Shown: in pieces, positions 7,612-29,125 of the stretch
How positions within the stretch are numbered: the stretch's first letter is position 1
How the letters are laid out: the number at the start of each line of letters is the position of its first letter
DNA from: Escherichia coli
Lineage (GTDB): Bacteria; Pseudomonadota; Gammaproteobacteria; Enterobacterales; Enterobacteriaceae
Strand: one strand, 5' to 3'
Length of the DNA stretch: 64,000 nt
Assembly (NCBI RefSeq): GCF_044324875.1
Contig: NZ_CP172185.1
The notes under the pieces: generated by a model
The model's input: the letters and a program-made list of their open reading frames with translations, nothing else
The model's database searches: none
Told to the model about the DNA's origin: nothing
Translations under genes and position numbers: made by a program

Positions 7612-7637
7612 CGGTGTAGTTAATGGTGTAGTTAATT
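7612..7637. repeat. attL core of the integrated element: CGGTGTAGTTAATGGTGTAGTTAATT, itself a tandem GGTGTAGTTAAT duplication.
   Basis: Identical 26-mer at 18721–18746; a further ~45 bp upstream of each copy is imperfectly similar. Confidence 0.65.
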
Positions 7638-8888
7638 GTGATGACCGGATTCAAAATTATGAGCAGAGCACTTAACAAGCTGAGCGATACACAGCTAAGG
7701 AAAATCAACGGCACACCCGCCCAAAAAACAGCCTTTCTTAATGACGGTGGAAACTTGAGCGTCAGGCATTCAACCAGCGGCCTTTTAACCTGGTATTTCA
7801 CTTACAGGGCCGGAACGGGAAGGGGGGCATCACCGGAACGCATTAAGCTGGGAAATTATCCTGATCTGAGCCTGAAATCAGCCAGGGAAAAAGCCGCCCA
7901 GTGTCGCGCATGGCTGGCTGAGGGGAAAAATCCACGTCATGAGATGAATTACACCGTACAGGAAGCGTTAAAGCCTGTAACGGTTGGCGATGCGCTCACC
8001 TACTGGCTTGAGTCGTACGCAAAGGAAAACCGTGTGGATTATGACCCACTGAAAAAGCGGCTAAATAATCACGTAATACAGCACATTGGCCCTATGCCGC
8101 TGGATAAATGCGAGCTACGGCACTGGCTGGCCTGTTTTGATCGGGTGGCAAAGCAAGCCCCTGTTTCCGCCGGGTTCCTGCTACAGACATGCAAACAGGC
8201 GCTTAAGTTCTGCCGGAAGCGGCGCTATGCAATCAGCAACGTTCTTGATGATATGAGTGTGGCTGACGTTGGGAAAAAACCGGATATAGGCGAACGTGTC
8301 TTAAGTACCAAAGAACTGGGCGAATTATTGCAGGCACTGGACAAAAAAATATTTTCCCCTTACTACGTCGCACTAATCCGCCTCCTGATTGTTTTCGGAT
8401 GCCGGACAGTAGAACTGAGGTTATCGGAGATCGGCGAGTGGGATTTTACCGAAATGCTCTGGACCGTTCCGAAGGAGCACAGCAAAACGAAGGTAGCCAT
8501 ATTCCGGCCCATACCGGAAGCGATACTGCCGTTCGTCACGCAGCTGATGGAGCAGAACAGGCACACGGGCTTATTGCTGGGGGAAGTGAAACAGGAAACC
8601 AGCGTGTCGCAGTACGGCAGATTAGTGCACAGGAGGCTTAAACACCCTCACTGGTCACTGCATGACATCCGGCGCACCTTTACAACGATGCTGAACGATT
8701 TAGGCGTGGATCCTCACGTCGTGGAGCAGCTTACAGGCCACCAGATGCCAGGAATGCAGCGAGTTTATAATCATTCCCGTTATCTGGATGCGAAACGCAA
8801 TGCGCTGGATATGTGGACGGAGCGGTTAGGGATACTGGCGGGAGCACATGAAAACGTAACCACGCTACCAGTAACCAGAAGAAAATAA
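7638..8888 (+). CDS. int: Tyrosine-type site-specific integrase (P4-like family).
   Basis: Starts immediately after attL; C-terminal catalytic region ...LHDIRRTFTTMLNDLGVDPHVVEQLTGHQMPGMQRVYNHSRYLDA... (R, H-x-x-R, Y). Start ambiguous: GTG 7638, ATG 7641 or ATG 7659. Confidence 0.85.
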   Translation: MMTGFKIMSRALNKLSDTQLRKINGTPAQKTAFLNDGGNLSVRHSTSGLLTWYFTYRAGTGRGASPERIKLGNYPDLSLKSAREKAAQCRAWLAEGKNPRHEMNYTVQEALKPVTVGDALTYWLESYAKENRVDYDPLKKRLNNHVIQHIGPMPLDKCELRHWLACFDRVAKQAPVSAGFLLQTCKQALKFCRKRRYAISNVLDDMSVADVGKKPDIGERVLSTKELGELLQALDKKIFSPYYVALIRLLIVFGCRTVELRLSEIGEWDFTEMLWTVPKEHSKTKVAIFRPIPEAILPFVTQLMEQNRHTGLLLGEVKQETSVSQYGRLVHRRLKHPHWSLHDIRRTFTTMLNDLGVDPHVVEQLTGHQMPGMQRVYNHSRYLDAKRNALDMWTERLGILAGAHENVTTLPVTRRK

Positions 8889-9262: not shown

Positions 9263-9451
9263 GTGTTAAGCACTGATCGGTTTATACGTGAAAAAGAATG
9301 CGAAAAGCTAACAGGCCTTAGCCGCTCATGCCGCTACCGCCTGGAAAAGGCCGGACAATTCCCATCACGGCGTAAGCTGGGCGGTCGTTCCGTTGGCTGG
9401 TCTTTATCCGAAGTTCTGGCATGGAAGGAAAGCTGCGAGGCAGTTCACTAA
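9263..9451 (+). CDS. alpA: AlpA-family phage transcriptional regulator / excisionase-like HTH protein (62 aa, GTG start).
   Basis: MLSTDRFIREKECEKLTGLSRSCRYRLEKAGQFPSRRKLGGRSVGWSLSEVLAWKE matches the AlpA/CP4-57 regulator pattern; sits just downstream of int. Confidence 0.75.
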   Translation: MLSTDRFIREKECEKLTGLSRSCRYRLEKAGQFPSRRKLGGRSVGWSLSEVLAWKESCEAVH

Positions 9452-9969: not shown

Positions 9970-10016
9970 GTGGTCACCTATTAAATTAGCCTTTCTATTG
10001 TTAGGTGGTCACCTTA
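9969..10016. promoter_or_regulatory. Divergent promoter/operator region with two direct GTGGTCACCT repeats.
   Basis: AGTGGTCACCT at 9970 and GGTGGTCACCT at 10005, between the RHH gene start and the first gene of the rightward operon. Confidence 0.35.
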
Positions 10017-10088
10017 ACACGGGGACACTTAAAAAAGCAAAGCCCGAAGGCGCTAGGAACACCAACGGGCTTCTAACCACAAACCGTT

Positions 10089-10301
10089 ATGAGAGGTAGT
10101 TTTATGGCTGTAAGACAGCATACCCCACGACTAGCGCACACACAAACCGCCTTTGTGTGGCGTTTTCTGGCACTGAGTGCCGGAGAATCTCAAATCATCC
10201 ACGTAACCGCCTGGACGGAACGCGAAGCGCGTAGCCGTTGCCCGTCCGGTTGTGTTGCTGTATTCGCCGCCCGTATTCGTCAGGGGGTGTACCATGATTA
10301 A
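10089..10301 (+). CDS. Small protein resembling host cell-division inhibitor Icd-like proteins of P4-type satellites (weak call).
   Basis: MAVRQHTPRLAHTQTAFVWRFLALSAGESQIIHVTAWTEREARSRCPSGCVAVFAARI...; first gene of a translationally coupled operon; alternative start at 10104. Confidence 0.4.
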   Translation: MRGSFMAVRQHTPRLAHTQTAFVWRFLALSAGESQIIHVTAWTEREARSRCPSGCVAVFAARIRQGVYHD

Positions 10302-10662
10302 CCTGTCACTTACCGATCTTAACCGCGTTCAGTTTCGTGAGAAATTTACCGGACAGCTACTCGTCAATGTGGAGAACGGGCGCATAGTGCGTAATTATCA
10401 CCTGCCGGATGGTGCAATTGCCGGAAGCGTTGAAGCATTGCTGGAACTGGCGGAACGTGCGCGACTGATTAAGCCGTCAACGAGCCATCACGATGATGAT
10501 CTGCATTTTACCGGATGTATGGTGAGTCACTACGAAAACGGCGTCGAGGTATCCTGCGAACGGCTGCGTGATGATTGCTGTTTCGGCACACTGCCGGAAT
10601 TTATCGAATTGCTGACCAGTTGCGGATATCAGGTTATTCAGGGGGTGCGCCATGTGCAATAA
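10294..10662 (+). CDS. Hypothetical protein (~122 aa), satellite early operon.
   Basis: ORF with start/stop overlap to both neighbours; no recognisable motif. Confidence 0.55.
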   Translation: MINLSLTDLNRVQFREKFTGQLLVNVENGRIVRNYHLPDGAIAGSVEALLELAERARLIKPSTSHHDDDLHFTGCMVSHYENGVEVSCERLRDDCCFGTLPEFIELLTSCGYQVIQGVRHVQ

Positions 10663-11347: not shown

Positions 11348-11635
11348 ATGAAAAATAAAAATTCTGGCGTTAATGCCAGCGGCCCCGCTCGTCCTGAAAT
11401 CCGTCCCGGCGATATTTTCCGTGATAACTACGGCGGCACGGTAATGATTAAGGGCGTGGAAGAACGGCGCGTAACCTACCGCCGTGATGGCTACGAATAT
11501 GACTGCGTTATGCCTGTTTATCAGTTCCGGCGTGATTTCACGCTGGTGGGCCATCGTAAAGCCGTTAATCAGAAACGTGCTGCAAGTTATATCCGCAAAA
11601 TCCGTGAAATGCTGGTCGCAGGGGGTAAGAAATGA
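11348..11635 (+). CDS. Hypothetical protein (95 aa), overlaps the replication gene start.
   Basis: Intact ORF; stop overlaps the start of the next gene (ATGA-type coupling). Confidence 0.55.
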   Translation: MKNKNSGVNASGPARPEIRPGDIFRDNYGGTVMIKGVEERRVTYRRDGYEYDCVMPVYQFRRDFTLVGHRKAVNQKRAASYIRKIREMLVAGGKK

Positions 11636-13038
11636 AACTTGCACCGAACGTAAAACTGTTACCGAAAGATAAACACACTGAGGCGGTTATTTTTGCGGGT
11701 GATAATGCTCACTCCTTTGCAGAACATTACATGATTGCACAGGCCAAAAAAGCAGGCGATCCCATCCCTCCGGTTTACCTGGGCCGTTATCAGTTAAGCG
11801 AACTGGACAACTTACAGATTGTTGATGAAGGACGATACAGGGCAAAGGTCATACGCGCCGGAAACCTGGACGATATGCAGATGCTGACCATTGCCACAAA
11901 ACTGGCGATCGCCGGAGTCCAGGAGGCGCGCCTACTTTCTGAAAATTTCGAACTGCTGGAGGACTGGAGCGACCAGCTACCACGACTACGGGAAACATGG
12001 GAGAGAGGGGAAAGCCTGGTCATGAATGGCGGAAAGCGAAAAATCACACTTCCCATCTCATGGGGTTCTGAGGGATTCGATGCGCAGCAAAGCTACGTCA
12101 TTAAGGGGCTTATTCCGGCTGAGTCATTATGCAGCACCTACGGGGCCAGCGGTTCTTATAAATCGTTCCTCGCCATTTCCTGGTCGTGCCATGTTGCCAC
12201 AGGTATGGCATGGGGAGGCCGCAGGGTAAGTAAGGGTGCGGTTATCTATATCGCTGGCGAAGGCAGCATGGGCGTAAAACGCCGCGTTAAGGCGTGGGAG
12301 ATAACCCACGACAAGGTGGTTACAGATTTGTGCATCATTAACGCGCCTGTTTTCCCTGCATCGCCTGACTATGTGGAGCAGGTTATCAGGACTGCCGGAC
12401 TTGTTAAGAGCAGAACGGGCGAAAATGTGCGGCTGATTGTGATCGACACGCTGGCCCGTTGCTTTGGTGGGAATGATGAAAATGATTCCCGTGATATGGG
12501 CGCATTTATCCAGGGGTGTGACGCGATAAAGCAGGCCACAGGGGCCACGGTGCTGGTGGTTCACCATTCCGGCAAGGATGAAACAAAGGGGGCGCGTGGT
12601 TCCAGTGCATTCCGTGCCGCGCTTGATGCAGAGTACCGAATCAGCCGCGAAAATTCAGACGTTACAGCACTGGTCGCAGCATGTACGAAGATGAAGGACG
12701 CAGAGGAGCCAAAAGAGAGCGCATACGACCTTAAAAGCGTGGAGGTGTTCACCGATACAGATGGCGAAGAAATTGTGTCCATGGTGGTGATTGACGTTCC
12801 CCGCGCCCCTGCTGAACTGGAGCGCATCGAGGAGGCAGGCAACAAGACGGAAAACCATACCGCGCTATGGGGGTGCATCCGTTCACGCACACAGAACGGC
12901 GACAAGTGCACGATCCCGCTGTTACGTGATGACATGAAACGGCTTGGGTATGACGTGAAAAATATGCGGCGATGGTTAGCCAAACTGGAAAAAGACGCCG
13001 TGATTTACATTGATGGTGATGATGTAGGACCACTGTAA
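11632..13038 (+). CDS. Replication initiator / RecA-fold P-loop ATPase (RepA/AAA_25-like primase-helicase family).
   Basis: 468 aa; P-loop-like YGASGSYKSF, Walker-B-like LIVIDTLARCFGG, VLVVHHSGKDETKG; followed directly by iterons. Confidence 0.75.
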   Translation: MKLAPNVKLLPKDKHTEAVIFAGDNAHSFAEHYMIAQAKKAGDPIPPVYLGRYQLSELDNLQIVDEGRYRAKVIRAGNLDDMQMLTIATKLAIAGVQEARLLSENFELLEDWSDQLPRLRETWERGESLVMNGGKRKITLPISWGSEGFDAQQSYVIKGLIPAESLCSTYGASGSYKSFLAISWSCHVATGMAWGGRRVSKGAVIYIAGEGSMGVKRRVKAWEITHDKVVTDLCIINAPVFPASPDYVEQVIRTAGLVKSRTGENVRLIVIDTLARCFGGNDENDSRDMGAFIQGCDAIKQATGATVLVVHHSGKDETKGARGSSAFRAALDAEYRISRENSDVTALVAACTKMKDAEEPKESAYDLKSVEVFTDTDGEEIVSMVVIDVPRAPAELERIEEAGNKTENHTALWGCIRSRTQNGDKCTIPLLRDDMKRLGYDVKNMRRWLAKLEKDAVIYIDGDDVGPL

Positions 13039-13240
13039 AAAGTGAGTAGTAAAAGTGAGTAATGGTGAGGTTTTTACAAAATATTAACACAATTACTCAC
13101 TTTCTCACCTGTATACATGCTCAAAAGTGAGCAGTGAAAAAACACTTATGAAACATGCACATATAAAACACAAAAATCTCAAGTGAGACGAAGTGAGACG
13201 CTTTAAAAAGTGAGTAGTAAAAGTGAGAGATGGTGAGCAA
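13039..13240. repeat. Iteron cluster, putative satellite replication origin.
   Basis: A ~30-bp unit AAAAGTGAGTAGTAAAAGTGAG(T/A)(A/G)ATGGTGAG occurs twice (13037–13070 and 13203–13237), with about ten AAGTGAG-type motifs including tandem AAGTGAGACGAAGTGAGACG and an inverted copy. Confidence 0.55.
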
Positions 13241-13611: not shown

Positions 13612-13854
13612 ATGAAGGTAAACCACAAAAAGACAGATCACCGCGCCATTGACCTTACAGAGCACTGGCTGAGGGTGGCGATAAAAATCATCGACCGCAA
13701 CACGGGGGAAGGATACGCGAAAGCACATCCCGAACTGATAAGTGCATTCATGACCACAGCGGCGGCAAACTTTGCCACGCTGACAGAGCGGGATATTGCC
13801 GAAGCAGAACAGGTAACAACCATCAACGTTAAAACCAGTGAGGTGGAATCATGA
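13612..13854 (+). CDS. Hypothetical protein (80 aa).
   Basis: ORF whose stop overlaps the ssb-like start. Confidence 0.45.
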   Translation: MKVNHKKTDHRAIDLTEHWLRVAIKIIDRNTGEGYAKAHPELISAFMTTAAANFATLTERDIAEAEQVTTINVKTSEVES

Positions 13855-14261
13855 CAGCACAGATAGCGGCTTACGGGCGGCTGGTGGACGACCCGCAGGT
13901 AAAACAGACCAGTAAGGGTACACCGATGACGCTGGCGCGTATGGCGGTATCTTTACCATGCGGCCAGGCACAGGACGGACAGGCGACGTTATGGTTATCG
14001 GTCATCGCATTTGGCAAACAGGCCGACTTTCTGGCTAAACATCAAAAAGGCGACGTTGCCAGCGTATCCGGCACGATGCAGGTCAGCCAGTGGACCGGAC
14101 AGAACGGGGAAACGCGGCAGGGTTATCAGGTTATTGCAGACAGCGTAATCAGTGCCCGTGCGGCACGTCCTGGCGGGAACAGACGCAAAACCACAGGCAC
14201 ACAGGGTAATCAGCCACCAGCGGGAGGCGATGACCCTTACGGTGATGATATTCCGTTCTGA
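13851..14261 (+). CDS. ssb: Single-stranded DNA-binding protein homologue (short OB-fold) with a conserved SSB C-terminal tip.
   Basis: WLSVIAFGKQADFLAKHQKGDVASVSGTMQVSQWTGQNGETRQGYQV parallels E. coli SSB [48 protein letters not shown]; Gly/Pro-rich linker; ends ...DPYGDDIPF (E. coli SSB ends DFDDDIPF). Confidence 0.8.
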   Translation: MTAQIAAYGRLVDDPQVKQTSKGTPMTLARMAVSLPCGQAQDGQATLWLSVIAFGKQADFLAKHQKGDVASVSGTMQVSQWTGQNGETRQGYQVIADSVISARAARPGGNRRKTTGTQGNQPPAGGDDPYGDDIPF

Positions 14262-14784: not shown

Positions 14785-14991
14785 ATGGCAGAAGAGAAAA
14801 AAGGCGGGGTGACGGTCTACATAAGCCCCGACATCGTGGAGGCGCTCAAGGAACGCCACCAGCAGAATGTAAAAGCAGGCATTGCGGCAGGACTTGATCC
14901 GCTGGCGATGGTTGAGCCGTCAACAGGCTGGCAGGTGCGTACCTATTTACGTGCGGCGCTGGGTATCAATCAGGTTCACGGAGGTGAATAA
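14785..14991 (+). CDS. Hypothetical small protein (68 aa), first gene of the head module (possible scaffold or assembly factor).
   Basis: ORF translationally coupled to the capsid gene; preceded by an AT-rich promoter region with palindromes TGATTATAATCA and TTGCGCAA. Confidence 0.45.
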   Translation: MAEEKKGGVTVYISPDIVEALKERHQQNVKAGIAAGLDPLAMVEPSTGWQVRTYLRAALGINQVHGGE

Positions 14992-16046
14992 TGACAGGCA
15001 AAGCAAAGGCACTTACAACTAACCAGCTTTTCGCGTACCTGAATCGCGGGGATATTTCGGAATATAAATTTAGTCCGCTGTTTACCACGCTGTTTTTCCC
15101 GAACGTGGCGACCTTCAACACCCAAAACATCATGCTGGACACCCTGGACATTGAAGAGGTTACGATGTCAGCGTTCTGTTCTCCTATGGTGGGTAGTCAG
15201 GTCCAGCGCGATAAAGGGTACGAAACCAGCACGATTAAACCAGGCTACATGAAGCCAAAGCACGAAATCGATCCAACAAAGACCATCATGCGCATGGATG
15301 GAGAAGATCCGGCACAGCTTAACGATCCAACTTACCGCCGTATGCGCCTGATTACTGGCAACATGCGCCGCCAGATAAACGCCATTAAGGCGCGCGTGGA
15401 ATGGCTGGCGGTGAATGCGGTAACGACCGGAAAAAACATCATTGAGGGCGAAGGCATAGAACGCTATGAAATCGACTGGAAAATACCGGAAAACTGCATC
15501 ATACAGCAGGCCAGTGGTAAAAAATGGTCCCAGCAGGATAAAGACATGCACGACCCAATCTATGACATCGAGCTTTATGCTGATCAGGCAGGTTGCCCCG
15601 CCAACGTCATGATTATGGGCGGTGAGGTATGGCGCACATTACGCAGCTTTAAAAAATTCCGTGAACTGTACGATCTTTCCCGTGGATCAGAATCCGCCGC
15701 CGAGCTGGCCTGTAAAAACCTGGGCGAAGTGGTGAGCTTTAAAGGCTATCTTGGTGATCTGGCCCTTATCGTCTATTCCGGCAAATACACTGACAGCGAC
15801 GGGACCGAAAAATATTTCCTTGAGCCTGATTTGCTGGTCCTGGGTAACACCAACAATAAAGGGCTGGTGGCATATGGTGCGATTATGGATCAGGAAGCGG
15901 TAAGAACGGGCGCAACGCAAAACATGTACTACCCGAAAAACTGGATTGAGGACGGCGATCCGGCGATTGAGTACGTGCAGACGCACAGCGCACCGCAGCC
16001 TGTACCGGCAGATATTCGCAAATTTGTTACCGTCAAAATTGCTTAA
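14991..16046 (+). CDS. Phage lambda gpE-family major capsid protein homologue.
   Basis: 351 aa; collinear matches to recalled lambda gpE: FSPLFTTLFFP vs FDPLFLRLFF, PGYMKPKHEIDP vs PGYVKPKHEVNP, DPTYRRMR vs DPAYRRRR, VSFKGYLGDLALIVYSG vs VSYKGMYGDVAIVVYSG, YYPKNW vs RYPKNW. Confidence 0.85.
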   Translation: MTGKAKALTTNQLFAYLNRGDISEYKFSPLFTTLFFPNVATFNTQNIMLDTLDIEEVTMSAFCSPMVGSQVQRDKGYETSTIKPGYMKPKHEIDPTKTIMRMDGEDPAQLNDPTYRRMRLITGNMRRQINAIKARVEWLAVNAVTTGKNIIEGEGIERYEIDWKIPENCIIQQASGKKWSQQDKDMHDPIYDIELYADQAGCPANVMIMGGEVWRTLRSFKKFRELYDLSRGSESAAELACKNLGEVVSFKGYLGDLALIVYSGKYTDSDGTEKYFLEPDLLVLGNTNNKGLVAYGAIMDQEAVRTGATQNMYYPKNWIEDGDPAIEYVQTHSAPQPVPADIRKFVTVKIA

Positions 16047-16057
16047 CGGGGGATTCT

Positions 16058-16393
16058 ATGGACGCTCCATACATTGAGTTATTTTCAGGCAGCCAACAGG
16101 TATCCACGACGCTGGTACATTTTGCCGCTGATGCTGGCGTTATTCAGGAATTTACCCCGCTGATGCTGGCAGACAATGGCGAGTTTAAGCCGTGGGATGG
16201 TAAGGAATCTGGCAAGGCTGTTTATCTGACCTCGTACCCTGTGGACACGTCAAAGCAGAAATCAGCACAGTGTTACAAGACGGGGATATTCAATATTGCC
16301 GCCGTTAACTGGCCTGACAGCGTCGACACCGATGCGAAAAAATGCGCCGCCTTTGCGGGTTCCGGCGTATCCGTTCAGCCGCTGGCCCGATAA
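16058..16393 (+). CDS. Phage lambda gpD-like head decoration protein homologue.
   Basis: 111 aa; FTPLMLADNGEFKPWDG / KTGIFNIAAVNWPDSVDTDAKKCAAFAGSGVSV parallels lambda gpD MTPLMLDTSSRKLVAWDG / [34 protein letters not shown]. Confidence 0.7.
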   Translation: MDAPYIELFSGSQQVSTTLVHFAADAGVIQEFTPLMLADNGEFKPWDGKESGKAVYLTSYPVDTSKQKSAQCYKTGIFNIAAVNWPDSVDTDAKKCAAFAGSGVSVQPLAR

Positions 16394-16467
16394 GCAGGGG
16401 GAACGATGGCACAAACCAGGGCGATGACGGCGACATCTATCGCATACTGAAAACCATCTGAGACAAG

Positions 16468-16491
16468 GCCGGAGAAATCCGGCTTTTTTTG
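16468..16491 (+). terminator. Rho-independent terminator after the head genes, just upstream of cos.
   Basis: GGCCGGAGAAATCCGGCTTTTTTT; near-identical to the 14551 terminator. Confidence 0.55.
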
Positions 16492-16499
16492 CGGGTCCT

Positions 16500-16640
16500 T
16501 TCCGGCATGTGGACCCGTTACGGGGCGTCGACCTCGCACGTTTTCGCTATTTATGAAAATTTTCCGGGAAAAAGCATGTCAGTTCTTCTTGTTATTAACA
16601 TATTGTTTTTAAAGAAATAACTATCAAGAAAGAAACGACA
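16500..16640. other. Lambda-type cohesive-end site (cosQ/cosN/cosB-like); predicted 12-nt overhang region GGGCGTCGACCT at 16523–16534.
   Basis: GTTACGGGGCGTCGACCTCGCACGTTTTCGCTATTTATGAAAATTTTCCGG is near-identical to the lambda genome ends (GTTACG|GGGCGGCGACCTCGCGGGTTTTCGCTATTTATGAAAATTTTCCGG); a downstream GAAAGAAACGACA resembles a lambda cosB R site. Confidence 0.8.
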
Positions 16641-16710
16641 TCATAATGATGAAAAATCTGTTTTTTTTGGCATTTCATGTCGTAACTGATTTTTGATAAG
16701 GAATTGCTGA

Positions 16711-17295
16711 ATGAATGTTAATAAAAAGAGGCTTGCCGAAATTTTTAACGTGGACCCGCGGACGATTGAACGCTGGCAGTCACAGGGGCTTCCTTGCGTC
16801 TCCAAAGGCAGTAAGGGCATTGAATCTGTATTTGATACTGCCATGGCAATTCAGTGGTATGCGCGGAGGGAAACTGATATCGAAAACGAAAAGCTCCGCA
16901 AAGAACTGGACGATTTGCGTGCGGCAGCGGAGTCAGATTTACAACCCGGCACCATTGACTATGAACGCTATCGGCTCACAAAAGCGCAGGCAGATGCGCA
17001 GGAACTTAAAAACGAGCGCGATCGCGGTGACGTGATTGATACAGAGTTTTGCATGTACGCGCTTTCAAAACTGGCGAGTCAGATTTCATCAATCATGGAC
17101 AGCCTCCCGCTTACTATGCAAAGGAGCTTCCCACAGATGACCCCCGCCATGCTGGATGGCCTGAAAAAAGAAGTTGTCAGAGCCTGTAACGCATGCACAA
17201 AACTTGATGAAAACATCCCGCGAATGCTGTCCGATTATCTGATGGAAACTACCGGAAATGTGCCTGATAAGTTTCAGCCGGATAAAGACAAGTAA
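16711..17295 (+). CDS. Terminase small subunit, lambda Nu1 family (TerS/Rpp-like).
   Basis: [29 protein letters not shown]...[44 protein letters not shown] tracks lambda Nu1 MEVNKKQLADIFGASIRTIQNWQEQGMPV...[44 protein letters not shown]. Confidence 0.85.
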
Positions 17296-17536
17296 CGTAG
17301 TGCACAATGACCGAAGCCAGTTTACTGACTGGCTTTCAGCGTTGCGCTGGTGGGCGTTATGCGTCAGTGATAAACGTCTCCAATATTACTGATATTCGAC
17401 ATCCCCACCTCTCCACACCAGCTCGAATATCATTTTTCTCATTAAAAACAGGACATTAAAAACTGGTCAGATGTCCCATAAAAAGCCAAATGGGACAGGT
17501 CAAAAGCTTTTTTTGCAGTAATTTTCAATAGGTTAC

Positions 17537-17935
17537 TTGATGTGGTGGTGTCCCATGAAAATTCAAAAATCAGCCGTTTTCCGCGATGCTCCCGCCCCGT
17601 GGCAGGGCACCCCACAAGGAGGACCCGCCATCACTATGGAGGACATGACCATGACCGAGACCGAAGCGCTCGGGATAATCCGCAGTATTACCGGAATCAG
17701 CCAGCAGGCTGGCGAACAGGAGGCCACGCAGCCGGACAGCGTGATCGCCGAAAATTACGTGCGTGTTGTTGCTGATGTAATGCGCCGTGATGGTATTGAG
17801 CTTAACGGCGTGGATATGCGCGACATACGAATCAGAGTACTAGAGTTGCTGGCATACCGTCGACGCGTGGCGATGTATCAGGAGAGCGCGAAAAACACTT
17901 ATCAGTGGAAGAAGCCGGAGCGGTTACGGCGGTAA
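17537..17935 (+). CDS. Hypothetical protein (likely ~100 aa from an internal ATG near 17636, which has an RBS).
   Basis: ORF downstream of terS; no recognisable motif; ends 1 bp before the palindrome array. Confidence 0.45.
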   Translation: MMWWCPMKIQKSAVFRDAPAPWQGTPQGGPAITMEDMTMTETEALGIIRSITGISQQAGEQEATQPDSVIAENYVRVVADVMRRDGIELNGVDMRDIRIRVLELLAYRRRVAMYQESAKNTYQWKKPERLRR

Positions 17936-18560
17936 CTGGTTGATATTTTCGAAATTCGCCAGCGGCGAACATCGGGGAAACCAGCCTAACCAGTTGATTC
18001 TTTCGGAAACAGCCATTGGCGGAATCCGGCGCGGTAACTTGCTGATATTCCCGATAACGCAAAATTGCGCTGGCTACATCCCTCACATCTGAGGACTGAT
18101 AATGCGACATTGCGCTGGCTGGCAAAGTGCAAAATTGCACGATGGCCTAACCCATTGATTATTTCGAAAACCTGCAATGCAGGAAATCGGGGAAGTAAGC
18201 CTAAGCTATTGATTCTTTCGGAAACCTCAATTTGAGGAAGTCGGCGCGGTAACTCGCTGAACTTAAAGCAAACCTCAAAATTGAGCTGGCTGAATAATCA
18301 TTATGATTACGCAGATGATTAAGGAATGACCGAAGGCGGAAATTCGCCTGTGGTTGATGGGGGAGTTGCAGATCTGCAACTCGACCATGAAACTACGGAA
18401 ACTACCCGTAGTTTGGGTAGTAAGAGTAACACCCAGATTTTGGGACTTACTCGTGATACCCAAATTTGGAGTATCGGTGGCAACCATAACGACTTTCGTT
18501 ACGGTTGATGCTTTTACCCCATTGGGGGAAAGGTATTACGATAATCATAACACCTACCGA
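17936..18560. repeat. Array of many distinct short palindromes in a diverged, duplicated scaffold (unknown function).
   Basis: Scaffold TTGAT(A/T)(T/A)TTTCGAAA...ATCGGGGAA..AGCCTAA occurs twice, and TTGATTCTTTCGGAAAC...TCGGCGCGGTAACT..GCTGA twice; different palindromes in each copy (e.g. TTCGCCAGCGGCGAA, CCTGCAATGCAGG, GTTGCAGATCTGCAAC). Full list in findings. Confidence 0.7.
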
Positions 18561-18720: not shown

Positions 18721-18746
18721 CGGTGTAGTTAATGGTGTAGTTAATT
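18721..18746. repeat. attR core, direct repeat of attL.
   Basis: Identical 26-mer to 7612–7637. Confidence 0.65.
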
Positions 18747-18826: not shown

Positions 18827-20287
18827 TTATTCATCTTTCGGCGCAGAATGCTGGCGACCAAAAATCACCTCCATCCGCGCACCGCCCAGCATGCTCTCTC
18901 CGGCGACGATTTTACCCTCATATTGCTCGGTGATTTCGCGGGCTACCGCCAGCCCTACACCTTGCCCAGGGCGTAAAGTATCAACCCGTTGACCACGGTC
19001 GAAAATGACCTCTCGCTTGCTTAATGGAATACCGGGGCCATCATCCTCGACCACAATATAGAGATGCTCGTCGGTTTGCCTTGCAGATATTTCGACAAAC
19101 TCGAGGCAATATTTACAGGCATTATCCAGCACGTTGCCCATCACCTCGACAAAATCGTTCTGCTCACCGACAAAGCTGATCTCTGGCGAAATATCGAGAG
19201 AGATATTGACCCCTTTGCGTTGATACACTTTGTTCAGCGCCGAGGTGAGATTGTCCAGCAGTGGGGCGACCGGATGTAGCTCGCGGCTAAGCAATGTCCC
19301 GCCGCGCATACTGGCACGATGCAGGTAGTAGCCAATTTGCTGTGAAATGCGACTGATTTGCTCCAGCATTACCGGCTCAGCATCACTGACGCTCATCTTC
19401 TCACTACGCAGAGAACGCAGCGTACTTTGCAGCACCGCCAGTGGCGTTTTCAGACTATGGGTCAGGTCGGTGAGCGTTGTACGATATTTGTCGTAACGTT
19501 CGCGTTCACTTTTTAACAATCGGTTCAGGTTTCGTACCAGACTGGTCAGTTCTCGCGTTGTGGCTGGATTGAGCAATTCGCGGTTATGTTCTTCCAGTTC
19601 GCGGACTTCTTTTGCCAGGGCTTCGATGGGGCGTAAACTCCACCTGGCGGCGACCCACAGCAGCGGGATCACTAACAGCAGATTGGCTGAGAGCACATAG
19701 ATAAACCAGCTCCAGACCATATAGGAACTTTTTAGCTCCACCGGAATGGTATCCACCACCACAATGGTCAACTTTGGCATCCGCGATGTTGCCGGGTAGA
19801 CGTTTACCGCCACCGAGTGGGTCATCTCCGCGTCGTCATCATCTTCCCGCACTTCCTGCAACTGTTGCTGTATCGAATGATCTCCACTCAGCAAGAGGCT
19901 GGTATCGTTAACATCCGCTTCAATTTCATGAAAACCATTCGATTTCAGCCAGTCAGGCTGGATCATCTTCATCAGCCAGGGCACGTCACGTTGCGCCCAT
20001 AAAAGCTGCCCGTTCTCATCATAAATTAGCGTCATAGTGGGGCTTTGCTTGTCGATATTTTCGGGTAACTCGACATGCAACTTATTGTTTTCCCACTTCG
20101 CAAGGGTATAGAACAGATTGCTCTCGCCACGTAACAGCCGAAACGTAGTTTTATCGAAACTGACGCTATAACCGATCAGCGCGACCATTCCGTAGGCAAG
20201 CGAAAGCACCAGTACAACCGCTGCCGTTGCCAATAGAAAACGTACCCGCAGCGAGAGCGGGAAAAAAAGACGCAGTAATTTTTTCAT
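18827..20287 (-). CDS. phoQ: Sensor histidine kinase PhoQ.
   Basis: 486-aa ORF; HAMP/histidine-kinase motifs ([17 protein letters not shown]); overlaps phoP stop. Confidence 0.95.
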
Positions 20288-27896: not shown

Positions 27897-28262
27897 ATGA
27901 TTGATGTCTTAGGGCCGGAGAAACGCAGACGGCGTACCACACAGGAAAAGATCGCAATTGTTCAGCAGAGCTTTGAACCGGGGATGACGGTCTCCCTCGT
28001 TGCCCGGCAACATGGTGTAGCAGCCAGCCAGTTATTTCTCTGGCGTAAGCAATACCAGGAAGGAAGTCTTACTGCTGTCGCCGCCGGAGAACAGGTTGTT
28101 CCTGCCTCTGAACTTGCTGCCGCCATGAAGCAGATTAAAGAACTCCAGCGCCTGCTCGGCAAGAAAACGATGGAAAATGAACTCCTCAAAGAAGCCGTTG
28201 AATATGGACGGGCAAAAAAGTGGATAGCGCACGCGCCCTTATTGCCCGGGGATGGGGAGTAA
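27897..28262 (+). CDS. insC: IS2 transposase OrfA (InsC).
   Basis: [56 protein letters not shown]... Confidence 0.9.
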
Positions 28263-29125
28263 GCTTAGTCAGCCGTTGTCTCCGGGTGTCGCGTGCGCAG
28301 TTGCACGTCATTCTCAGACGAACCGATGACTGGATGGATGGCCGCCGCAGTCGTCACACTGATGATACGGATGTGCTTCTCCGTATACACCATGTTATCG
28401 GAGAGCTGCCAACGTATGGTTATCGTCGGGTATGGGCGCTGCTTCGCAGACAGGCAGAACTTGATGGTATGCCTGCGATCAATGCCAAACGTGTTTACCG
28501 GATCATGCGCCAGAATGCGCTGTTGCTTGAGCGAAAACCTGCTGTACCGCCATCGAAACGGGCACATACAGGCAGAGTGGCTGTGAAAGAAAGTAATCAG
28601 CGATGGTGCTCTGACGGGTTCGAGTTCCGCTGTGATAACGGAGAAAAACTGCGAGTCACGTTCGCGCTGGACTGCTGTGACCGTGAGGCACTGCACTGGG
28701 CGGTCACTACGGGCGGCTTCAACAGTGAAACAGTACAGGACGTCATGCTGGGAGCGGTGGAACGCCGCTTCGGCAACGAGCTTCCGGCGTCTCCAGTAGA
28801 GTGGCTGACGGATAATGGTTCATGCTACCGGGCTAATGAAACACGGCAGTTTGCCCGGATGTTGGGGCTTGAACCGAAGAGCACGGCGGTGCGGAGTCCG
28901 GAGAGTAACGGCATAGCAGAGAGCTTCGTGAAAACGATAAAGCGTGACTACATCAGTGTCATGCCCAAACCAGACGGGTTAACGGCAGCAAAGAACCTTG
29001 CAGAGGCGTTCGAGCATTATAACGAATGGCATCCGCATAGTGCACTGGGTTATCGCTCGCCACGGGAATATCTACGGCAGCAAGCCAGTAATGGGTTAAG
29101 TGATAACAGGTGTCTGGAAATATAG
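28220..29125 (+). CDS. insD: IS2 transposase OrfB (InsD, DDE domain); expressed as an OrfAB fusion by -1 frameshifting.
   Basis: 301-aa ORF overlapping orfA in the -1 frame. Confidence 0.9.

Follow-up and report, generated by a model that had tools for sequence, protein, structure and literature searches.

cos and terS in an island between roxA and phoQ

The window considered here, a stretch of 64,000 nucleotides (64 kb) of the Escherichia coli contig NZ_CP172185.1, harbors between roxA and phoQ (phoQ, 18827-20287) an 11,109-bp genomic island whose cos site and adjacent small terminase gene (terS) are the subject of this study. The island, by its gene content a Gram-negative phage-inducible chromosomal island (PICI) of about 11.1 kb, carries a complete lambda-family cos at 16493-16688, composed of cosQ, cosN and a cosB with the R3-I1-R2-R1 array, followed by terS (16711..17295, plus strand), which encodes a chimeric 194-aa protein of the Nu1 family. 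An earlier note on this DNA had drawn attention to a lambda-type cos paired with a Nu1-like TerS in the absence of a large terminase (TerL); the string that it quoted does lie where it was placed, and the combination of a lambda-family cos with a Nu1-family TerS and no TerL is confirmed. Two further points, absent from that note, concern the makeup of this packaging module: its TerS is a chimera, and the DNA-binding domain of this protein and the adjacent cosB do not constitute a natural cognate pair.

cosQ (GGGTCCT, 16493..16499, plus strand) lies 30 nt 5' of cosN, as in lambda. The predicted 12-nt cohesive end of cosN, GGGCGTCGACCT (16523..16534, plus strand), whose position was set by alignment to the mapped ends of lambda and phage 21, is identical to both phages at 11 of 12 positions, the exception being a G6T substitution. 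It is preceded by GTTACG and followed by CGCACG, and the conserved CG flanks are present (ACG, GGGCGTCGACCT and CG, 16520-16536). A 21-nt core, GTTACGGGGCGKCGACCTCGC, occurs once in the 64 kb, for 0.02 occurrences expected, and of the 51 bases quoted in the earlier note, three depart from the lambda cos junction, namely G6T in the overhang and a GG to AC change immediately on its right-hand side. Over the stretch -32 to +46 relative to cosN, 65/78 bases are shared with lambda and 61/78 with phage 21. Since BLAST matches the cos-gene 1 region of phage 21 with E = 5e-162, the resemblance of the cos-terS segment to phage DNA reflects homology rather than chance.

Downstream of cosN, a conserved block at 16552..16566 (plus strand) is equivalent to the integration host factor (IHF) site I2, its position being transferred from the phage 21 annotation. 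The R3 box, AAGCATGTCAGTTCTT (16572..16587, plus strand), was placed by its motif match and by alignment with the R3 box annotated in phage 21; it starts at +49 from cosN, as it does in phage 21. The equivalent of the IHF site I1 lies between R3 and R2 (16593..16608, plus strand; position likewise from the phage 21 annotation), and the sequence read at 16593-16605, TATTAACATATTG, agrees with the IHF consensus WATCAANNNNTTR at 12 of 13 positions. R2 (16630..16645, minus strand; AAGAAACGACATCATA on the plus strand) and R1 (TTTCATGTCGTAACTG, 16673..16688, plus strand) were both located by alignment to phage 21 and by motif. The inverted R2 box contains GAAAGAAACGACA (16628-16640), the cosB-like element of the earlier note, which is real and finds its place in the R3(+)/I1/R2(-)/R1(+) array. 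Of the nine boxes with the motif ATGTCRNNNCT in the entire window, three fall within 112 bp here, and a repeat search within cosB yielded nothing past the R boxes defined by alignment. Between the start of cosN and the ATG of terS the distance is 188 bp, compared to 188 bp in phage 21 and 190 bp in lambda; the proposal of a satellite with the lambda-style layout of cos and terS is supported. The description of the site as a near-exact lambda cos holds for cosQ, cosN and I2, but fails for cosB, which is of the class found in phage PhiR5_1, and for the TerS DNA-binding domain, which is that of phage 21.

The terS product matches Pfam Phage_Nu1 (PF07471) over residues 1-161 (1.4e-71), PHROG 57 (4e-68) and, in the PDB, chain B of 6HN7, the solved N-terminal fragment of lambda TerS (2e-36), as well as 1J9I (8e-20); its open reading frame (ORF) is intact, with neither frameshifts nor stop codons. 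Residues 1-100 are identical to gp1 of phage 21 at 97 of 100 positions. Within the DNA-binding domain, identity to gp1 is 65/68, the recognition helix PRTIERWQS is the same, and A30V is the sole change in the wing. The division of TerS into one domain that binds DNA, at the N-terminus, and another that binds TerL, at the C-terminus, is established, and lambda-21 chimeric TerS proteins are functional (PMC9026076). The C-terminal half of the island protein (aa 101-194), presumed to be the oligomerization and TerL-binding part, is practically identical to that of a large E. coli PICI TerS family, clusters of which are found on up to 659 contigs. The exact TerS protein occurs on 107 contigs, in this island at phoQ on every contig read, and in two island backgrounds that either possess (variant L012) or lack (the window) a gene for a 137-aa protein discussed below.

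Directly 5' of cosQ lies a terminator-like hairpin followed by a T-run (16465..16490, plus strand), the fold of 16452-16497 reaching -19.1 kcal/mol (z = -3.5); a scan for consensus promoters and terminators was uninformative and did not report this hairpin. Searches for the cosN core and for cosQ revealed no second cos site in the window of the kind present in the PICI EcCICFT073. In E. coli GF4, an island inserted at the same roxA-phoQ site has the same cosQ and cosN (11416) and is devoid of terS. It bears about 500 bp downstream a second, inverted cos-like copy (about 11905-11981) with a differing, GGTGGTTGTTG-rich cosB-like sequence.

Origins of the packaging module

The module was compared in 30-nt bins with the closest island, that of TUM1886 (L006), prophages of TUM1886 (L007) and PS2Canimalfeces12 (L008), and phage 21. 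Up to 16529, cosQ and the left part of cosN are 100% identical to the TUM1886 island. The segment 16560..16739 (plus strand), which comprises the PhiR5_1-class cosB and about the first ten codons of terS, is identical to the PS2Canimalfeces12 prophage at 174 of 180 positions, to phage 21 at 125 and to the TUM1886 island at 95, and is 93.7% identical to PhiR5_1. The segment 16740..17009 (plus strand) encodes the phage-21-class DNA-binding domain and the linker helix of TerS (about aa 10-100), and is shared with the TUM1886 prophage (267/270) and phage 21 (261/270). Finally, 17010..17295 (plus strand) encodes the PICI-family C-terminal half; the TUM1886 island (L006) is matched here at 299 of 300 nt over 17010-17309, and the block 16983-17947 as a whole is 98.8% identical to it. 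By these comparisons, the module is a four-part mosaic: cosQ and cosN are of the PICI lineage, cosB is of the PhiR5_1 class, and TerS joins a DNA-binding domain of the 21 class to a C-terminal half of the PICI class. Its joints lie in blocks conserved throughout the family, namely the I2 region (16530-16568, within which the left crossover falls), the 5' end of terS, and 16983-17012, which encodes AQADAQELK, as homologous recombination would give. The usual PICI relatives of this TerS combine the same C-terminal half with a divergent N-terminal domain of their own (MKSHLMNKK...ATAFDKWGV...) and a private cosB, and among about 25 family members fetched, the phage-type domain was found only in the window protein and in truncated copies of it.

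The substitution in the cosN overhang, which the earlier note had proposed as a determinant of helper specificity, is unlikely to play this role, given that it is shared with a TUM1886 prophage that possesses TerS, TerL and portal genes and that lambda and N15 terminases show no cosN specificity, natural variation affecting mainly bp 7-12 (PMC4669245). We rejected this candidate on account of the identical cosN of the terminase-carrying prophage. G6T also occurs in relative islands, a different relative island having the lambda version, and is evidently a slightly unusual yet tolerated variant of the left half of cosN. In TUM1886, the G6T form of cosN is common to the PICI and to the terminase-carrying prophage of the 21 class, and the right flank of the prophage site, CGCACG, is the same as in the window, which suggests that cos sequences are exchanged between islands and resident prophages.

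By the R boxes of cosB and the recognition helix of TerS, natural phages divide into distinct classes. In the lambda class, the R core CGTTTCC occurs with the helix IRTIQNWQE; in the 21 class (phage 21, the TUM1886 prophage and phage IdasGreatGrand), CrTGTCGG occurs with PRTIERWQS; and in the PhiR5_1 class, ATGTC(A/G)(G/T) occurs with IRTIDRWQT and the wing QISGGGKGVEVI in nine of nine contexts, i.e., PhiR5_1 itself, the PS2Canimalfeces12 prophage and seven IMG/VR contigs. With PRTIERWQS in its TerS and an ATGTC(A/G) core in its R boxes, the island has neither the lambda helix nor the lambda cosB. Moreover, because all nine phage contexts pair this class of cosB with IRTIDRWQT and with a wing other than that of the island TerS, the island cosB and TerS DNA-binding domain form a non-cognate pair. 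R1 and R2 of the island read ATGTCG followed by T where the 21 type has G, and R3 reads ATGTCAG. Over bp 55-63, where R3 is contacted, the sequence is TTTCCGTTC in lambda, TGTCGGTAC in phage 21 and, in the island, TGTCAGTTC, which by alignment is intermediate and matches phage 21 at seven of nine positions. TerS residues 20 and 24 discriminate lambda from 21, and E24 contacts bp 56 of R3 (PMC9026076, PMC4669245). The island TerS has E20 and S24, and the cognate TerS of its cosB class has D20 and T24. Sippy and colleagues are said to have placed, in 2015, bp 59 of R3 close to TerS residue 20.

A donor phage bearing both a PhiR5_1-class cosB and a 21-type domain was sought in 5,426 complete genomes of E. 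coli and not found, the best match over the full length being 82%. Among 50,697 phage records, this cosB class was detected solely in PhiR5_1 (one record), where the TerS is of the type that goes with it. A search of IMG/VR with the exact 44-mer gave no match, and a looser cosB pattern retrieved seven contigs, all with the other TerS type. So far as the literature and databases covered show, a satellite TerS associated with a phage-derived cosB and a phage-derived DNA-binding domain that are not cognate to each other is new.

Island architecture and the proposed route of packaging

The island is bounded by exact 26-bp direct repeats, the attL core CGGTGTAGTTAATGGTGTAGTTAATT (7612..7637) and the attR core (18721..18746; both unstranded), which lie inside a 75-nt repeat of 79% identity. 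Within the att core, GGTGTAGTTAAT occurs twice in tandem (7612-7637 and 18721-18746), a doubling similar to the "doubled DNA sequence motif" that has been published from helper-embedded satellites and related PICIs, in their attP regions. All island genes are oriented in the same direction. Directly after the attL core lies the integrase gene int (7638-8888, from the ORF list and Pfam), followed by genes for an AlpA regulator (alpA, 9263-9451), an AAA_25/RepA-type helicase (repA, 11632-13038), SSB (13851-14261), PerC, a major capsid protein of the lambda gpE family (14991..16046, plus strand; Pfam Phage_cap_E, 2.1e-49; 42% identity to lambda-type gpE) and a head decoration protein of the lambda gpD family (16058..16393, plus strand; Pfam HDPD, 1.2e-17; 34% identity to a gpD-type protein), then by cos and terS. 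The order of the capsid and decoration genes, E then D, is the opposite of that of lambda. After terS come a conserved 94-aa ORF (PHROG 1561; 17651..17935, plus strand), which belongs to the block 98.8% identical to the TUM1886 island and has no match in PDB or Pfam, and attR. Directly 3' of the replicase gene, a AAAGTGAGTAGT-rich 37-nt direct repeat (13033-13069 and 13201-13237, 92% identical) probably provides the iterons of the replication origin of the island. Past the 94-aa ORF, the region 17933-18291 contains two copies, 74% identical, of a 113-nt repeat, and three occurrences of the 23-nt motif GATAAYGCRAMATTGCGCTGGCT. An Rfam scan of the island returned no match.

This organization is that of a PICI: int, AlpA and a primase/replicase module are collinear, as annotated in its relatives, the 11,109 bp between the att repeats fall within the expected size of about 10-15 kb, and its phage genes for structure or packaging are limited to those of the E-like capsid protein, the D-like decoration protein and the Nu1-family TerS, ORF, Pfam and PHROG annotation of the island having revealed no TerL, portal, tail or lysis genes. 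As a PICI, the element would be expected to undergo induction, replication and high-frequency transfer that depend on a helper phage. The published five-component definition of PICIs includes terS and calls it "responsible for redirecting the packaging" (PMC10085698). Since the island has no TerL, portal, protease, head-tail connectors or HNH, it is not a capsid-forming PICI (cf-PICI). A degraded lambdoid prophage could in principle leave behind a lambda-family cos, a Nu1 gene and E-like and D-like genes, all of which are present here. Nevertheless, the conserved int-alpA-rep-capsid-terS order over 11.1 kb, the intact att repeats, and the fact that related islands with this organization occupy several sites across many E. 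coli genomes, some of them inside helper prophages, leave next to no probability to such an origin, which we rejected on the basis of the PICI architecture.

No TerL gene was found in the island or in the remainder of the 64-kb window. A helper phage or TerL within the window was ruled out, the rest of it consisting of chromosomal genes and insertion sequence (IS) elements. Among these, an autotransporter gene is apparently broken into two ORFs (36259-37863 and 37860-38558) that adjoin an IS21-type istB-istA pair on the opposite strand (38555-40973), and a further transposase gene lies at 28220-29125. The overlap of terS with its own TerL partner gene, as seen in phages, is likewise missing from the island. 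Therefore, a helper TerL is the only packaging route available, and we infer that the island uses one. The earlier suggestion of an own TerS working with a helper TerL agrees with the published PICI model (PMC10085698); because the literature lists terS as a core component of PICIs, it represents the standard model and not a discovery. In E. coli FDAARGOS_1287 (L005; L009), a relative island whose TerS shares this C-terminal half lies in the portal gene of a lambda-like prophage; the TerS of that prophage and the first 96 residues of its TerL are identical or nearly so to those of lambda. That relative is a helper-embedded satellite, in the arrangement described by Tommasini et al., and ties the PICI C-terminal half to a lambda-type terminase only circumstantially. 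An attempt to read the class of the helper TerL from the C-terminal end of TerS was dropped, the similarity over the last 41 aligned residues being too low, with an identity of 34% (14/41) for lambda, 29% for phage 21 and 46% for the PhiR5_1 type.

We lean toward a mechanism in which the island TerS and a helper TerL package the island at its own cos. Induction by a lambdoid helper would lead to excision of the island and to its replication into concatemers. TerS would bind the island cosB together with IHF and, through its PICI-type C-terminal half, would recruit the TerL of the helper, the island having none. This TerL would nick cosN at 16523-16534, generating the 12-nt 5' ends GGGCGTCGACCT, and would pump the DNA into helper-derived heads, until packaging stops at the downstream cosQ/cosN. 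A lambda-sized head could accommodate about four units (44.4 kb); alternatively, heads remodeled by the E-like and D-like proteins of the island could contain fewer. Such a mechanism is consistent with the full PICI architecture and att repeats 11.1 kb apart with no TerL, with the presence of all cos subsites at phage spacing next to an intact terS, with the near-identity of the TerS C-terminal half to that of the PICI family, with the relative island lodged in a lambda-like prophage, and with the occurrence of the chimeric module on 107 contigs in two island backgrounds.

Several observations weigh against it. By its class, the island cosB is not the natural partner of the DNA-binding domain of its own TerS, and in R3, the most critical of the boxes, two of the nine contact positions (bp 59 and 62) depart from phage 21. 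The presumed TerL-binding end of the protein is just 29-46% identical to the phage TerS examined. On every contig read, the island occupies one and the same site at phoQ, and its abundance could thus result from clonal inheritance. Finally, two TerS-encoding E. coli PICIs were tested in 2018 and neither was transferred (PMC6092414).

The near-identity of the island cosB to that of a PhiR5_1-class prophage (174/180) and of PhiR5_1 (93.7%) invites a different explanation, in which the TerS-TerL complex of the helper recognizes and cuts the island cos as if it were its own, after the manner of P4, SaPIbov5 or 11capE, leaving the island TerS dispensable or, if it acts at all, with a role as an interference factor. 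This cosB class has its own cognate TerS in all nine cases, and satellites that bear a helper cos alone are documented. However, 107 contigs conserve an intact terS ORF, the PICI family normally possesses a private cosB together with a private TerS, which argues that this TerS is used, and the route would be restricted to a rare class of helpers, represented by one record among 50,697 phages. Altogether, mimicry of a helper cos appears unlikely, though less so than the other alternatives.

The module could also be inert. Between the decoration gene and cos, a 14-codon remnant (16406..16450, plus strand) is all that is left of a gene for a 137-aa protein (PHROG 1999) that relatives keep intact, at 9984-10397 in the TUM1886 island and at 395-808 in L012; about 350 bp are deleted compared with the TUM1886 island (about 9990-10340 of that sequence), with a junction at 16403-16411. 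The 137-aa protein weakly resembles the C-terminal end of a head maturation protease family (5.5e-9), and the matched region is, we infer, the Nu3-like scaffold part. The chimera might then be a by-product of recombination between the island and resident lambdoid prophages within conserved blocks of cos and terS, vertically inherited in one E. coli lineage and defective for packaging as a result of the mismatch between domain and cosB and of the lost scaffold-like gene. The non-cognate pair, the deletion, the invariable chromosomal site and the absence of the combination from the 5,426 complete genomes are all compatible with such a scar. Conversely, terS is free of frameshifts and stops, the cos subsites are all intact and correctly spaced, the att sites are preserved, and the module is present in two diverged island backgrounds. 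We consider this explanation improbable.

A further way in which a satellite can alter packaging is exemplified by the Rpp proteins of E. coli PICIs, which mimic the dimer interface of the TerS DNA-binding domain (PMC6739421, PMC9026076). By analogy, the island TerS, with a DNA-binding domain nearly identical to that of 21-class prophages, could form mixed dimers or oligomers with the helper TerS via this domain, and thereby change or block its specificity rather than replace it. Still, the protein is a full-length Nu1-family TerS that retains a C-terminal half of the TerL-binding kind. A PDB sequence search for Rpp homologues with the window TerS, the TerS of its relatives, the 137-aa protein and the downstream ORF gave a single match, between the window TerS and RppC, at E = 0.16 only; the other island ORFs had no PDB match, and the search revealed no homologue of Rpp in the island. 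Retargeting of this sort seems very unlikely.

A more speculative reading, for which we would claim little probability, takes the non-cognate combination to be both functional and adaptive. The module might hold two keys, PhiR5_1-class helpers reading the island cosB by means of their own TerS, and the chimeric TerS using 21-class helpers or sabotaging them by occupying their cosB. If this were true, a single 11-kb satellite would exploit or interfere with several packaging-specificity classes of lambdoid phages, and satellites could retune their helper range by independent swaps of cosB and DNA-binding-domain cassettes.

Significance and comparison with known systems

Satellites with a small terminase of their own are textbook knowledge for the pac-type Staphylococcus aureus pathogenicity islands (SaPIs). 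Regarding E. coli, an element of the present kind, a PICI with cos and terS, is already known, and our literature search found no experimental study on the function of a cos-type PICI TerS in this species; Rpp is the only mechanism dissected in this field in E. coli. The island is a natural experiment on packaging specificity and not a new principle. Its mosaic supports a modular picture of packaging, with cosB and the DNA-binding domain of TerS moving from helpers to satellites and back, and it provides a test case both for the cross-reaction of 21-class and PhiR5_1-class specificities and for the identity of the TerL bound by the PICI C-terminal half. These questions bear on the prediction of which prophages mobilize such islands in pathogenic E. 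coli.

The cosQ, cosN, I2 and R3-I1-R2-R1 elements and their distance to terS are conserved between the window and phages lambda, 21 and PhiR5_1. In contrast to these phages, the window has no TerL downstream, and its cosB and DNA-binding domain come from different phage classes. SaPI1 and SaPIbov1 likewise combine a satellite small terminase with a helper TerL; however, they are packaged by the headful (pac) mechanism, their TerS belongs to an unrelated family and interference is entrusted to a separate protein, Ppi, whereas the window element is of the cos type. In the E. coli PICI EcCICFT073, a cos PICI of the Rpp type, cosQ and cosN likewise resemble those of lambda and precede a gene whose winged-helix product sets packaging specificity. 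This PICI has neither TerS nor an R-box cosB and needs the helper TerS to be retargeted by Rpp, whereas the window displays a full TerS and the R3-I1-R2-R1 array.

Fillol-Salom et al. already noted in 2018 the presence of terS in some Gram-negative PICIs, and the resemblance to lambda of cosQ and cosN in those of E. coli (PMC6092414). The TerS-encoding PICIs of E. coli (the "PICI" model of SatelliteFinder; EcCI of IHE3034, 18098) have the same int, alpA, pri/rep, capsid and terS genes and lack TerL; their TerS C-terminal half is practically identical to that of the window, and the closest of these islands has identical cosQ and cosN. Where they have an N-terminal domain and a cosB of their own, the window has a 21-class domain and a PhiR5_1-class cosB. 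Finally, the lambda-21 hybrid phages of the Feiss laboratory likewise have a 21-type N-terminal domain fused in mid-protein to a heterologous C-terminal half, and such chimeric TerS constructs served to define the two specificity domains (PMC9026076). The window chimera differs from them in that it is natural, resides in a TerL-less satellite, has a PICI-type C-terminal half and adjoins a cosB other than cosB-21. The island can be viewed as the natural counterpart of this classic experiment, in which the site-recognition cassette has been swapped with phages while the presumed TerL-docking half is specific to the satellite.

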